From contig JAAFKJ010000123.1 of NCBI GenBank assembly GCA_021399395.1, positions 1 through 42,996 on the forward strand: 42,996 nucleotides of DNA, written 5' to 3'. Below, piece after piece: positions 22,738 to 26,974 of this stretch (its first letter is position 1; each line of letters starts with the position of its first letter). The position numbers were made by a program, and so were the translations under genes. Source of the DNA: Candidatus Heimdallarchaeota archaeon. GTDB taxonomy: Archaea > Asgardarchaeota > Heimdallarchaeia > Heimdallarchaeales > Heimdallarchaeaceae. Under the pieces are notes generated by a model. It saw nothing but the letters and a program-made list of their open reading frames with translations. It did no database searches and had not been told where the DNA came from.

Positions 22738-23604
22738 CTATTGAAGGCAATATACTGCTGAATGGCTTGTGGTATCTATAAATTTAATATGAAAATCATT
22801 GTCTTTGATTATTTCCTTCAACTTGTCAGGATTAATGAAATTCCTTGTATTTCTATAAATCTCTCTTTCTTCTAGTTCGTATTCTCGAGTTAATCGGTTA
22901 TATGAGGAATATGTGATTGCTTGCATTCCATAGTCTTTCTTAACTGCTGGAAAAAGGTAATGCTCGCTTGCGATAATGTCATTGCCTGGTTCTATTAGTA
23001 ATTCTCCGCTGTAATCTCCTTTTAGATTTTTTGAATTGAATTTGTTATCAGTTGCTTTTGGTTTGTAAGTTGAAAAAATAAATAACCCATTAGGATTCAA
23101 TTGTCTCCTTACAGCTGAGAAAAACTCTTTCAACATTGAAATAGGTAAACTTGGAAATGTATTCATTGGTAGAACTATAACATCAAACTGTCTTTGATAC
23201 ATGTTATTATTCTTTAAGAAATCATCAAAAAAGACATCACAATTTTCTAGCAATAAGTTCTCTTTTGAATAAGCTTGGAAGTATTTCTTACAATGTTTAC
23301 AGACCTCTATTCCAAATAATTGTGCCTTTTCAATTTGCTTCTCATTTTCTATTGTAATCTTGTTTAGAACTCTTCCATAAGCAGTACCAATCTCTAATAT
23401 TGCTGTTGGATTGTTATCAAATATGAATTGAATCTCAGGATCATCTCTATTAGCATGATTTTTCCTTCTTCTCCAAAAAACATCAGCCCAAAAATGTGAG
23501 GAATGTAAATCGTTTCTTATGTTTAATATTGATTCATTTTCCATTAAGAATCCAGAGTCATGTAGTTTCTGCAATTCAGATTCGATTTCATGCTTGGAAA
23601 ACAT
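22738..23604 (-). CDS. Class I SAM-dependent methyltransferase
   Basis: ILEIGTAYGRV, FDVIVL, LNPNGLFIF. Confidence 0.85.
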   Translation of the reverse strand: MFSKHEIESELQKLHDSGFLMENESILNIRNDLHSSHFWADVFWRRRKNHANRDDPEIQFIFDNNPTAILEIGTAYGRVLNKITIENEKQIEKAQLFGIEVCKHCKKYFQAYSKENLLLENCDVFFDDFLKNNNMYQRQFDVIVLPMNTFPSLPISMLKEFFSAVRRQLNPNGLFIFSTYKPKATDNKFNSKNLKGDYSGELLIEPGNDIIASEHYLFPAVKKDYGMQAITYSSYNRLTREYELEEREIYRNTRNFINPDKLKEIIKDNDFHIKFIDTTSHSAVYCLQ

Positions 23605-23696
23605 AAGATTCTACTGTAACCAACTGCTGACCGAAAACTTACTCAATCTTATCTAAAAGGCACAAGAATTATCTGAAGGGAGAAGAAAATATAACT

Positions 23697-24296
23697 ATGT
23701 TAGTTAGAATTGGTATAGCAGCATCCATGCAAGGAGTATCAGCGAGCACTATGAGAAGGTGGGAAAGGGAAGAGAGACTCCTCCCTTACAAGAGGACAAG
23801 AGGAGGGCACAGGAGATACAAACTCTCGCAAATGATAGGAGAAGAAGAACAGGAGGAAGAGAACGACCCTCAGCTCAACCCGATAGTGCTAGGATATGCT
23901 AGGGTAAGTGGAGCAAAACAGAAGAAGGAGTTAATTACTCAGCAAGAACATCTACTATCTTTTGCTAAGCAACAAGGGTGGAAGGTAGAGAAGATCTTTA
24001 CAGATATTGCTTCAGGGATGAATGACCAGAGAAAAGGATTACACGCGCTACTACAAGCTGTAGCAACGAAGCAACCGTTTGCTGTCATCTGCACATATAG
24101 AGACAGGATAGCGAGGTTCGGGACGAAAGTGATTAACCAGTTTTGCCAGACCTTTGACACGAAAGTTATCTCTGTGTATCAACGAGAAGAGCAAGCAGTA
24201 GAGAAAAAGTTAGTAGAAGATATGATCGCTCTCCTCACCTCGTTTGCAGGGAGATTGCACAGACAGAGGAGAGGGAAAGCACCACCAAACCAGTGA
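23697..24296 (+). CDS. tnpA: IS607 transposase (MerR-type HTH + serine recombinase)
   Basis: GVSASTMRRWE, RTRGGHRRY, YARVS, DIASG, DRIARFG, LVEDMIALLTSFAGRL. Confidence 0.95.
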   Translation: MLVRIGIAASMQGVSASTMRRWEREERLLPYKRTRGGHRRYKLSQMIGEEEQEEENDPQLNPIVLGYARVSGAKQKKELITQQEHLLSFAKQQGWKVEKIFTDIASGMNDQRKGLHALLQAVATKQPFAVICTYRDRIARFGTKVINQFCQTFDTKVISVYQREEQAVEKKLVEDMIALLTSFAGRLHRQRRGKAPPNQ

Positions 24297-24344
24297 TTTT
24301 TCTCGGGTTTATATAGCAATCTAAGTATTATACTTACGAAGAAG

Positions 24345-26288
24345 ATGGGCACACAAGCAGCAAGCACCTCTCAAACTTCTCCGCCTATTCTCTTAGACAA
24401 GGTGATGAGGAGTTATCAGATAGCGCTGAAGTGTGACACACCCTCTCAACGAGAAGAAATCAACCGAAGAATTAGGGATTTTGAAGAAAGACAACACAAC
24501 CTCCTCGGTCAAGATGTGGTCAAAAAAGCTTTAGCCCTCTATCGCACTAACCCCAAGGAACGCTTCTTTGTTCGCCAAGTAGGGAAAGCGGTGGGGAAGA
24601 ACCCTAACATCGCTGAGAGCGCTTATCACTGGCTCCAGATAGCAGTGAAGGGGAAGATAGACAAAGAGCAGAAAGTGCAAGGGATGCTCAATTTCTTGCA
24701 TAAGAACCCTCAACAATTAGTAGAATGGATGATTTTCGGTCGCTCTCCTTATACTGAAAGCAGTCTGGGAAAATATTGGCGACTGCACAGAAGGTACGTG
24801 ATTAATCTTCTTACAAGTTCTAGAACGCAACTGGACAGTTATAGTAAAAAGACCAAGAGGAACTATTATTTTTCCAATTCTTTAGTCCTTAATGGAGCGC
24901 TCCCTACTTACAATCAACAAGATGTTGTCCAAGCAATCGACGATGCTCTAACTCACCAGACCACTACTTTCTCCCAACTACCTTCCCTCTCGAAGAACCA
25001 GCAAGCGTTCATGAATAAACTCCACCTCTTAAAACAAGAGCAAATAATTGTTGCTCCTTTCCTCACCTCGTGGATCAACAGTTACCAAACTTCTCGTTGG
25101 AAAAGTCTCAAACAATTAGCTAAGGAACTAGCAGAAATAATGGGTAAACCTACTCGAAAACTCTTCTCTGCCGTCAGGCAGGTGGTAGTTTTCACACTCT
25201 TTGACCAGTTCATGCAGAGTGTCCCTCAGTTATTACAAGGTCTACCTGTAACTGCACTCGTTCCCCCACCATTTAAACGTAAAAAACAAGGAAGATTACC
25301 AGTAAAATTGTTAATGAAAAAAGATTATGTTATCACCCGTGAAGGGAATGCAAAAGATTTGACCAGACAAGTAAAGAACCATGGTAGAACCACTTTAGGT
25401 TTTCCGCAGAAGGGGAAGAAGAAACTAACAGCTCAAGTGCTCTTTCCCCCCAAAGTCTTGGAGTATCTCCGAAATGGTGCCGAAATTAAAGTTTTCCAAG
25501 TTAGTAGTGGCAGTGCTCCCAGTTTCAAACCCCGTGTAGATGTGGTGCTAGAAGGGACGCATGACTGCTTCCGCTCTCACAAGCTCCTCCACACTTACCT
25601 CCCTAAGATTCCTAAAGGTAAGAAGCAAATCCTAGGGTTAGACATCAACCGCTTGGGAGAGTTTATGGTGGCATTTAATTCCCCCGTTTCAGTTCCTTCA
25701 GATTTGATGAACCTAGCTGAACGCTACAATCATCTCAAGAAAGTTATAAAAGAGCTCAACCTCGGTTTCCTCCGCAAACGTAAAGAGTACAACATTCTTG
25801 GTAGCTGTAAACTTAAGAGCGAACTTACTAGAGTCTATAAACGTCGTCACCGTCTTCTCCGTGAGATTACCCGTCGTTTACCTCATTTCTTAGCTGCAGT
25901 GATAGTGAAGAAGCAGTGCCATACTCTGAAGATCGAAGAGTTGGAGGTTGATCCTTCTGGTACCAAAGGAGCTTTAGCTCAAGCTATTTACACCATGCCT
26001 GATAATCTTTACATTTACAAGAAAGCTGTCTGGTTAGCTTCGCTTGAATTGGGTTACGATGTCCGTTTAGAGACGGTCAACCCTTACCATACCAGCAGTG
26101 TCCACCACAACTGTGGAGGGACTATTCTCCGTCACCCCGGTTCTGGAAATTATGACTTCGCCCCTTGTGGTAAATGTGATCAAGTGGTCAACACTCATGC
26201 TAACGCTGCTCTCAACATCTCTTCCCTCCCAGGTACTCTCCTTCCTTACAATCTCTTCCCCTCAACACACGTGAGGGGCCCCACTTAA
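24345..26288 (+). CDS. tnpB: TnpB-family RNA-guided nuclease homolog, unusually large
   Basis: RuvC-I GLDIN, RuvC-II IEEL, VNPYHTS, HxxC/CxxC zinc finger, RuvC-III NTHANAALNI; TTTATATA at 24308-24315; alternative start ATG 24405. Confidence 0.85.
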   Translation: MGTQAASTSQTSPPILLDKVMRSYQIALKCDTPSQREEINRRIRDFEERQHNLLGQDVVKKALALYRTNPKERFFVRQVGKAVGKNPNIAESAYHWLQIAVKGKIDKEQKVQGMLNFLHKNPQQLVEWMIFGRSPYTESSLGKYWRLHRRYVINLLTSSRTQLDSYSKKTKRNYYFSNSLVLNGALPTYNQQDVVQAIDDALTHQTTTFSQLPSLSKNQQAFMNKLHLLKQEQIIVAPFLTSWINSYQTSRWKSLKQLAKELAEIMGKPTRKLFSAVRQVVVFTLFDQFMQSVPQLLQGLPVTALVPPPFKRKKQGRLPVKLLMKKDYVITREGNAKDLTRQVKNHGRTTLGFPQKGKKKLTAQVLFPPKVLEYLRNGAEIKVFQVSSGSAPSFKPRVDVVLEGTHDCFRSHKLLHTYLPKIPKGKKQILGLDINRLGEFMVAFNSPVSVPSDLMNLAERYNHLKKVIKELNLGFLRKRKEYNILGSCKLKSELTRVYKRRHRLLREITRRLPHFLAAVIVKKQCHTLKIEELEVDPSGTKGALAQAIYTMPDNLYIYKKAVWLASLELGYDVRLETVNPYHTSSVHHNCGGTILRHPGSGNYDFAPCGKCDQVVNTHANAALNISSLPGTLLPYNLFPSTHVRGPT

Positions 26289-26376
26289 ACGACGGTTAAA
26301 AAGCCTCTGGCAAGTTTAACCAAGTTTCATAACGTGTGTTTATTATGCTATATTAAGTCATCTTATCTGAAATACC
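26250..26376 (+). ncRNA. Predicted omegaRNA (right-end RNA) scaffold
   Basis: Three hairpins and a 9-bp long-range complementarity between the tnpB 3' end and the element right end; 5' boundary uncertain. Confidence 0.55.
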
Positions 26377-26449
26377 ATTTTGAAATATTTGGATTTTTAA
26401 AGCCAAAAGATAGAGATATAAACACAACTAGGTTCCCTATTTTGATAAT

Positions 26450-26974
26450 ATGGTTGGTTTAAAGCGCGGTGTTGTTGAATTAAAACCTTATAATCCGAAG
26501 TGGAAAGATCTCTTTGCACAAGAAAGCAAAGTAATCGCTTCAGCAATTTCAGATTTCTTGGTAGATATTCAGCATATGGGTAGTACTGCCATTCCAGATA
26601 TAGTTGCTAAACCAATTATAGATATTGCACTTGCGATTAATTCCCTTGAGAATATTGAGAAAATCATTGCTCCATTAGAGAAGATAGGTTTCATCTACAG
26701 GGGAGAACAAGGAATTCCGGATAGACATCTATTTGTTAAAGGTGGAGAAGAACTCAGAACCCATCATCTTCATGTTATGTTTAATGAACATTATGAATGG
26801 AAGAAACACATGGCCTTTAGAGATTACTTACTAGCGAATCCTGAAGAAGCACGTGAATACTCGGAACTAAAAAAGAAATTAAAACAAGAGTATAAAGATG
26901 ACAGAGTTGCTTATACCGATAGCAAAACTGAATTTATCAATGGAATTCTAGAAAAAGCTATGAAATCAGATTAG
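26450..26974 (+). CDS. GrpB family (UPF0157) nucleotidyltransferase-fold protein
   Basis: HMGSTAIP..AKPIIDI, THHLHV, FRDYL, YTDSKTEFI. Confidence 0.9.
   Translation: MVGLKRGVVELKPYNPKWKDLFAQESKVIASAISDFLVDIQHMGSTAIPDIVAKPIIDIALAINSLENIEKIIAPLEKIGFIYRGEQGIPDRHLFVKGGEELRTHHLHVMFNEHYEWKKHMAFRDYLLANPEEAREYSELKKKLKQEYKDDRVAYTDSKTEFINGILEKAMKSD

Follow-up and report, generated by a model that had tools for sequence, protein, structure and literature searches.

TnpB, the ancestor of Cas12, is among the most abundant of prokaryotic genes. Altae-Tran et al. (2023; PMC10691335) divided TnpB into five major clades and described RIIIr-4, in which the RuvC-III aspartate is 'mutated to histidine' and a C4 finger is lacking. 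They also distinguished further RuvC-III-rearranged branches and the archaea-only Ser-6, MazE and RIIIr-6, noted links to serine recombinases, and inferred activity of the rearranged enzymes from conservation, cleavage being predicted only. In the target-adjacent motif (TAM) screen of Nety et al. (2023; PMC10278001), 27 of 59 orthologs, drawn from all clades, were active, one of them from a RuvC-II-rearranged clade, and 32 were negative. The window analysed here is the whole stretch of 42,996 nucleotides, positions 1 to 42,996 of contig JAAFKJ010000123.1 of a Candidatus Heimdallarchaeota archaeon (assembly GCA_021399395.1). At 23618–26339 it carries an IS607-family insertion sequence that is autonomous and resides in an Asgard archaeon of the Heimdall group. 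Its tnpB-like gene is a well-preserved member of an Asgard-restricted lineage of enlarged, His-type TnpBs borne on IS607. In this lineage the RuvC centre is D-E-H, the zinc site is H-C-C-C and a helical lobe spans about 275 residues, all three being fixed traits. A first-pass annotation, made from the DNA letters, had put the gene forward as a candidate new RNA-guided system. That claim is not supported, because the Asp-to-His change already defines the clade RIIIr-4 of Altae-Tran et al. (PMC10691335); the variant is catalogued and does not constitute a new system. The annotation had named membership of an already characterised clade as grounds against its claim, and these hold halfway: the Asp-to-His clade is catalogued and one ortholog of it was tested, but the clade is not biochemically characterised.

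The histidine-type RuvC centre and the enlarged lobe

The following features of the large gene are referred to below.

24345–26288, forward strand: tnpB-like gene, an open frame of 647 amino acids, His type (D433-E531-H618)
24441–25259, forward strand: enlarged all-helical lobe, residues 33–305, assigned by DSSP on an AlphaFold2 model
25641–25643, forward strand: codon of D433 (RuvC-I) in LGLDINR, invariant, at the C-terminal end of strand 429–434
25935–25937, forward strand: codon of E531 (RuvC-II) in KIEEL, invariant, at the end of strand 527–531
26103–26177, forward strand: zinc-finger (TNB) region H587-x2-C590...C608-x2-C611, with His, not Cys, as the first ligand
26196–26198, forward strand: codon of H618 (RuvC-III position), CAT

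Everything that the first-pass annotation had read from the sequence stood up. Open frames at 24345–26288 and 23697–24296 bear out the 647-residue protein and the uninterrupted tnpA and tnpB. Positions 26190–26219 read AAC ACT CAT GCT AAC GCT GCT CTC AAC ATC, giving the annotated RuvC-III motif NTHANAALNI with CAT at its histidine. The invariance of D433, E531, H587, C590 and C608 agrees with the annotated intact RuvC-I Asp and RuvC-II Glu and with the HxxC..CxxC finger, and the proposed helical N-terminal half corresponds to residues 33–305, all helical in the model. The public gene call on the same contig (P0002) has 565 residues, 87% of the 647-residue frame, owing to a later start that affects 24345–24590; the longer frame is favoured because the N-terminus is conserved in homologs.

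The identity of the RuvC-III position was examined by profile alignment. A family profile of 37 members hit Cas12f/TnpB chains and aligned with CnCas12f1 (8hr5) at E 2.3e-6, placing 'kvnthlnaaknia' on YKVNADYNAARNIA, and within it 'vnthlnaakni' on 'VNADYNAARNI'. H618 therefore occupies the Asp column of the Cas12f RuvC-III motif, an aspartate that we take to be the catalytic RuvC-III residue, and NTHANAALNI lacks the Asp of the TnpB motif (D/N)(R/A)DxNAAxNI. Among the 37 aligned homologs (40–88% identity), D433, E531, H618, H587, C590 and C608 are invariant and C611 is kept in at least 90%. Invariance extends to 25 full-length distant members (alignment A5, down to 20% identity) at D433, N435, E531, H587, C590, C608, C611 and H618. 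At the DNA level the H618 codon is CAT in 24 and CAC in 27 of 51 aligned loci, and chance is excluded as the origin of the histidine because all 51 encode it and both synonymous codons are used. A strict motif search by regular expression returned His in 45 of 47 matches, the other two being off-site. The histidine and the N-terminal expansion are thus clade-conserved, which settles the homolog comparison that the annotation had called for: close homologs do not all carry Asp.

The gene is evidently maintained. The ratio of nonsynonymous to synonymous substitution rates (dN/dS) is 0.12–0.17 over the whole gene in seven pairs and 0.10–0.14 over residues 30–310, a pattern of substitution by which the gene, including the enlarged helical lobe, is judged to be under purifying selection.

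The fold was modelled with AlphaFold2 from the 37-sequence alignment, yielding a mean predicted local distance difference test score of 86.2 and a predicted template modelling score of 0.70, with secondary structure from DSSP. The model has a first strand at residues 20–29, an all-helical block at 33–305, a beta-rich part at 320–404 and then the RuvC-like part, in which H618 starts helix 617–627. Foldseek against the Protein Data Bank returned 68 chains at E<=0.001, with probability 1.00 to Cas12f and TnpB chains. The ranking runs from Cas12f (8hr5, 4.5e-10) through ISFba1 TnpB (8iaz, 1.1e-7) to ISDra2 TnpB (8h1j, 3.9e-6), and several larger Cas12 types and Fanzor2 (9b0l, 4.0e-5, rank 46) are matched as well. 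Template modelling scores are low (0.2–0.35), as expected because these are multi-lobe proteins modelled without RNA. The nearest ESM Atlas clusters are Cas12f1/TNB-bearing (score 0.97). Judged from the model, the large protein folds like TnpB and Cas12f, its three RuvC positions being occupied by D, E and H, and the helical lobe of about 275 residues is, from its position, a putative recognition (REC) lobe. The AlphaFold and Foldseek comparison that the annotation had suggested thus gave a confident model with matches to Cas12f and TnpB structures.

The family appears to be confined to Asgard archaea. A word-indexed search recovered 126 proteins, mostly of 620–650 residues, whose source names are nearly all Heimdallarchaeota, with one Thorarchaeota and one labelled only as subsurface metagenome. 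Exhaustive searching of 1.84 billion representatives with phmmer gave only 165 relatives at E<=0.001, none named bacterial; the named distant relatives are Heimdall, Hodarchaeales, Odin, Promethearchaeia and Helarchaeales. When homologs were sought again with the broad alignment A5, the Heimdall family saturated the results and no new taxa appeared. The 59 loci taken from species genomes come from metagenome-assembled genomes titled Heimdallarchaeota (55) or 'archaeon' (4). A broad profile had matches in 51 of the 301 phylum genomes, including 26 of 28 in the family and every one of the 22 others in the genus; these genomes are incomplete, and the several matches per genus genome are matches rather than copy numbers. 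Stops were counted in a few matches of this phylum-wide search. Among 16 distant loci, an IS607-type tnpA or its remnant lies upstream in 7; one of the 16, L103, encodes an ordinary DRD-type TnpB and was set aside as not belonging to the family.

Two sets of other TnpB-like proteins were noted alongside. Giant His-type relatives of 1,227–1,784 residues occur in Odinarchaeota and Hodarchaeales with the TnpB-like part C-terminal (P0146, P0166, P0180, P0186, P0187, P0280). In P0180 and P0187 weak mid-protein matches to MazE/AbrB-like domains (E 7e-4 and 9e-5) fall under the gathering score; they recall the MazE/RHH-TnpB branch that Altae-Tran et al. (2023; PMC10691335) placed in RIIIr-4. The window genome has 22 matches to NF040570, at least 14 of them above the cut-off. 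Ten of those TnpBs, on contigs C154, C17, C145, C95, C63, C106, C15, C131, C161 and C170 (loci L063–L072), were examined; they have about 400–440 residues, NADxNAAxNI with Asp, 'IGYN' at the expected RuvC-II Glu, and no CxxC pairs. By these motifs they look like the published RuvC-II-rearranged type, and the host would thereby carry two non-canonical TnpB lineages side by side.

Element ends, scaffold and candidate target motif

The element and its ends are laid out as follows.

23618–26339, forward strand: IS607-family element, 2722 bp, delimited by comparison of occupied and empty sites and by sharp conservation limits; owing to a shared TGT, the register 23615–26336 is equally valid
23613–23617, forward strand: ACTGT at the left junction, a pre-existing target motif and candidate TAM, its last three nucleotides (TGT) being the core common with the right end
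23635–23650, forward strand: left-end paired motifs AAACTT and AATCTT, 10 nucleotides apart, at positions 23 and 33 from the left tip; candidate TnpA binding sites
26312–26327, reverse strand: right-end paired AAACTT motifs, 10 nucleotides apart, at positions 13 and 23 from the right tip
23697–24296, forward strand: tnpA, an uninterrupted frame of 199 amino acids, IS607-family serine recombinase with a MerR-like helix-turn-helix and a resolvase domain

TnpA matched the IS607 model NF033518 at E 2.2e-49 (167.5 bits, cut-off 110), with domain hits to PF00239 (resolvase, 1.1e-20) and PF00376 (MerR helix-turn-helix, 1.6e-9). With the fold matches and the Heimdall relatives, this bears out the first-pass reading of a TnpB-type protein encoded by an IS607 element whose host is an Asgard archaeon.

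The boundaries were defined by an empty site in the same-genus genome G133 (locus L075), where the left-flank gene (91% identical) and grpB are 126 nucleotides apart. The empty junction reads GATTCTACTGT|TTATGATAC, or in longer context AAGATTCTACTGT|TTATGATACTAT, whereas in the occupied window the left junction reads AAGATTCTACTGT|AACCAACTG and the right one ACGTGTGT|TTATTATGCTAT. TGT alone is common to both junctions, which sets the length of the element at 2722 bp, and neither long inverted repeats nor a target duplication is seen. This restriction of the shared sequence to TGT fits crossover by a serine recombinase in a short core, a known mechanism. Conservation among relatives begins at ACTGTAACCAACTG (23613) and stops abruptly after TTTCATAACGTGTGT (26339). 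By comparison of sites, the window element is a mobile IS607 element.

The ends behave alike across the family. ACYGT stands at the left boundary in all 16 loci selected solely for a full tnpA. The Y of the left ACYGT equals the Y of the right-end TGYGT in 20 of 20 two-ended elements (11 C/C, 9 T/T); these were chosen by a regular expression demanding AC[CT]GT, so that only the Y-to-Y agreement is informative. The AAACTT-type pairs, equally spaced by 10 nucleotides and inverted between left and right ends, recur in most of the 20. An 18-nucleotide terminal motif, allowing up to 4 mismatches, was found in 51 of 62 loci, the other 11 being cut by contig ends before it, and beyond the terminal motif ACGTG(T/C)GT the 51 loci whose 3′ end is intact all have unrelated sequences.

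Copies differ in what they retain of tnpA. Across the 62 loci it is full in 16, a remnant in 13, absent in 24 (at least 700 nucleotides upstream considered) and unjudgeable in 9 owing to contig ends; several copies without tnpA retain the left end 100–200 nucleotides upstream of tnpB. The window genome itself has three family paralogs, about 77% identical, two with a full tnpA and one with a remnant. Elsewhere, a second family copy in opposite orientation lies about 2 kb from the first on one contig (L024:4306-5355, reverse strand), so copies cluster, and L023:3001-4938 is a decaying copy, given its in-frame stop after codon 83 despite an end-to-end tblastn alignment.

The 3′ end of the element holds a putative RNA scaffold.

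26257–26339, forward strand: omega-RNA-like scaffold, structured core with hairpin, pseudoknot and stems; core only, the 5′ side may extend further
26257–26263 with 26273–26279, forward strand: scaffold hairpin
26265–26271 (loop) with terminal 26333–26339, forward strand: scaffold pseudoknot
26287–26290/26324–26327, 26295–26300/26315–26320 and 26304–26305/26309–26310, forward strand: three-part stem
26340–26359, forward strand: candidate guide segment, the flank directly after the scaffold; the 20-nucleotide length is assumed

When the structure was tested on the 51 loci, 96.9% of cells were paired, compared with 22–45% when the partners were slid by 1–3 columns. Eight scaffold pairs have changed on both sides, a number reached by 0 of 500 shuffles, and these eight include 4 of the 7 pseudoknot pairs; related sequences can outscore shuffles without any structure, and the slide control and compensatory pairs are the stronger evidence. 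Conservation is higher over the final ~190 nucleotides of the element than over the coding sequence, and in the three closest pairs the synonymous rate is 0.23–0.30 over the last 67 codons against 0.48–0.58 gene-wide. Rfam gave no match at E<=1 within 23400–26600. The covarying 3′ structure ending at the right boundary is probably a guide RNA. Because the scaffold ends at 26339 and is followed by unrelated flank, that flank is the candidate guide, and its match in the empty site lies directly 3′ of ACTGT. On this layout ACYGT is a putative TAM; a TAM followed by the target is the standard double-stranded DNA arrangement of TnpB systems. At three distant loci (L095, L096, L099; about 22–28% protein identity) the 3′ ends show, by eye, a G/C hairpin near the stop codon and then AACGACGG-like and CCAAGTTT-like words, shared themes that hint at a very old scaffold core.

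Expression signals and the genomic setting complete the picture of the locus.

24308–24315, forward strand: TATA-like box TTTATATA, 37 nucleotides before the tnpB ATG; archaeal type, conserved
22738–23604, reverse strand: methyltransferase/spermidine-synthase-like gene
26450–26974, forward strand: grpB, forming a divergent pair with the preceding gene

That tnpB has a TATA-like box of its own, as first annotated, is supported by a TTTAWATA-type box at -34 to -43 of the start codon in 51 of 53 loci by regular expression; the other two (L003, L021) have CTTAAATA in its place. GC content is 0.43–0.44 over tnpA and the tnpB-like gene versus 0.31–0.39 in the flanks. The element occupies the short spacer of the divergent flanking pair, the start codons of which are 2.8 kb apart instead of 126 nucleotides, and grpB follows 110 nucleotides downstream of it.

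Proposed mechanism and its rivals

We regard it as nearly certain that the locus is an IS607 element and that it carries a His-type TnpB together with an omega-RNA-like scaffold. We propose that TnpA inserts the element at ACYGT with crossover in a short core, here TGT, that is left at both junctions, a step shown by the comparison of sites. The conserved TATA box would drive the tnpB mRNA, the 3′ end of which, together with the last ~50 nucleotides of the element, may fold into a pseudoknotted omega-RNA scaffold that reads on into the flank as guide. The protein–RNA complex would then recognise element-free sites, in which ACYGT precedes a match to the guide, and would cleave them with His618 acting as a metal ligand or general base instead of Asp. 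Repair from an occupied copy could restore the element afterwards.

Histidine is catalytic in other RNase H-fold nucleases, namely in Argonaute (DEDH), in Cas9 (H983) and in Thermus thermophilus RuvC. From sequence conservation, we judge it probable that element-free sites are cleaved by the complex, because the three residues are invariant over deep divergence, the transposon lifestyle has lasted and the gene is under purifying selection, traits opposite to those described for dead, exapted TnpBs. As a whole, cleavage included, this account is the one we lean towards.

Several findings weigh against it. Gln replaces His in the tails of four relatives (P0141, P0162, P0191, P0233; DTQ/NTQ) and in L099, so position 618 can change without loss of the IS607 context; these are possibly natural loss-of-function or altered-function forms. 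In no alignment made does a carboxylate replace the lost Asp. Membership of TnpB by family models is marginal: the large protein scores 26.1 bits against PF07282, 0.2 below the gathering score of 26.3, and 18.4 bits (E 0.0011, cut-off 100) against NF040570 over residues 493–626 only, so that these matches are weak and confined to the C-terminus. An hhalign comparison with the ~400-residue TnpBs of the same genome reached a probability of 2.5% (E 0.019) and serves for column mapping only. The call of ACYGT as TAM is a candidate one, resting on one empty site and the conservation of the motif, which might in part reflect a recombination site carried by the element instead of recognition by TnpB. 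Lastly, the sole RIIIr-4 ortholog listed by Nety et al. (2023; PMC10278001; row 39 of Supp. File S2), a Nocardiopsis protein of 529 residues, processed its omega-RNA and scored 'N' in the double-stranded DNA TAM screen. This last objection is weak, since 32 of the 59 orthologs overall were negative too and kinship of the Nocardiopsis protein to the Asgard family is unproven. As a separate observation, the Gln-type L099:1095-3293 (reverse strand) still has tnpA upstream.

The same RIIIr-4 ortholog, which processed RNA and was negative on double-stranded DNA, and the suggestion by Nety et al. (PMC10278001) of alternate substrates for such orthologs lend themselves to a second explanation, which we consider rather unlikely: a transposon-borne, RNA-guided DNA binder that does not cleave DNA. 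The first-pass annotation had itself offered this reading beside that of an active nuclease with variant chemistry, and both are kept here. Such a protein would mark or hold element-free sites, steer TnpA or block transcription, and its RuvC centre would serve no other end than maturation of the RNA it carries, a state known from Cas12 variants that bind without cutting. The canonical third Asp is missing throughout the lineage, and RNA processing would equally require the conserved D, E and H. The published nuclease-dead TnpBs, however, are described by Altae-Tran et al. (PMC10691335) as immobilised, tied to host genes and lacking several catalytic residues. Here the elements are mobile, with unrelated flanks at all 51 loci, and only one position, an invariant one, differs; nor would a binder offer an IS607 element any benefit that we know of.

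A D-E-H centre that acts on single-stranded DNA or RNA, or that only nicks, with the element spreading by a route other than double-strand-break homing, we think improbable. The 'altered substrate specificities' that Altae-Tran et al. (PMC10691335) propose for rearranged sites speak for it, and the enlarged lobe, under purifying selection, could hold a different substrate. Against it stands the empty site, where putative TAM and guide match are arranged as is standard for double-stranded DNA targets.

Very improbable is a domesticated, TldR-like host regulator beside an old transposase. One same-genome paralog (L003) and 24 of the 62 loci lack tnpA, as this would predict, but in the window copy tnpA and both ends are intact, an empty site exists in a genome of the same genus, the copies without tnpA retain both ends and sit at unrelated places, and no neighbour gene is conserved; with a mobile element, unrelated flanks and a single invariant catalytic difference, we rejected it. 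That the His arose by private decay of a dying gene, or by an error of sequencing, is refuted by its presence in 37/37, 25/25 and 51/51 sequences and in all three same-genome paralogs, and by dN/dS of 0.12–0.17, leaving it a negligible chance.

A further-reaching version of the cleavage account is held only tentatively. D-E-H may form a functional RuvC site whose chemistry is peculiar to it, such as nicking or a preference for Mn or Fe rather than Mg; the Asgard Asp-to-His change may be independent of that in bacterial RIIIr-4; and a Cas12-sized lobe may have grown on a transposon without a CRISPR array and given rise to the 1,000–1,800-residue fusions in Odin- and Hodarchaeales. If true, such an independent, active D-E-H Asgard lineage would be a separate natural route from TnpB to large RNA-guided effectors and a new programmable-nuclease scaffold.

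Cleavage by His-type clades was predicted in 2023 and the sole tested ortholog was negative on double-stranded DNA; the present locus makes the question directly testable. The gene is intact and under purifying selection, the putative scaffold ends at 26339, and a candidate guide, a candidate TAM (ACYGT) and a natural empty target are at hand. Activity with His would widen the known chemistry of RuvC nucleases, and binding only would make the protein a mobile, naturally nuclease-poor RNA-guided DNA binder. A transposon-borne TnpB grown to Cas12-like size without CRISPR also bears on the origin of the Cas12 REC lobe.

Comparison with known systems

In the literature outside subscription journals we found no text that treats the Asgard His-type family or demonstrates cleavage by any His-type TnpB. 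The closest catalogued relative in kind is RIIIr-4, with which the Asgard family shares His at the RuvC-III Asp as a fixed clade trait and the retained RuvC-I Asp and RuvC-II Glu; RIIIr-4 and the archaea-only branches likewise include members with a linked serine recombinase and members of archaeal origin. The finger of the Asgard family is not C4 but an invariant H-C-C-C site, whereas RIIIr-4 is said by Altae-Tran et al. (PMC10691335) to lack the C4 finger. The Asgard family differs in its 640–650 residues, its helical lobe of about 275 residues and its named relatives, all of them Asgard.

Among TnpBs of known structure, that of ISFba1 (8iaz, IS607) resembles the window protein in fold and in its serine-recombinase TnpA context. 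As in both ISFba1 and ISDra2 (8h1j, IS200/IS605), the putative guide-RNA scaffold begins within the 3′ part of the gene, terminates with the element on the right and has its last bases in a pseudoknot. Both of those TnpBs, in contrast, have about 400 residues, a D-E-D centre and a C4 finger. TldR proteins, reportedly nuclease-dead exapted TnpBs (Wiegand et al., 2024), and other nuclease-dead exapted TnpBs also combine a TnpB scaffold with a non-canonical catalytic site. They are immobile, tied to host genes and deprived of several catalytic residues; the window element, by contrast, is mobile, and its single departure lies at an invariant position.

Fanzor2 of mimivirus (9b0l) shares the TnpB-derived fold, and an IS607-type ancestry has been proposed for it. 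The first-pass annotation had named IS607 TnpBs as the proposed source of Fanzor2, but a special link of this lineage to Fanzor2 is not supported: Fanzor2 ranks below the Cas12f and TnpB structures (4.0e-5 versus 4.5e-10 for Cas12f), every named relative is archaeal, and the named matches include no eukaryotic or viral relatives. An association with CRISPR was likewise rejected, as no array lies beside the element, where 110 nucleotides lead to grpB, and the flanks are unrelated across the 51 loci, where no repeat-finder was run. The best structural and profile matches remain those to Cas12f (CnCas12f1 8hr5, AsCas12f 8j12, and 7wju), from which the window gene differs in being borne on a transposon and in carrying His for Asp.

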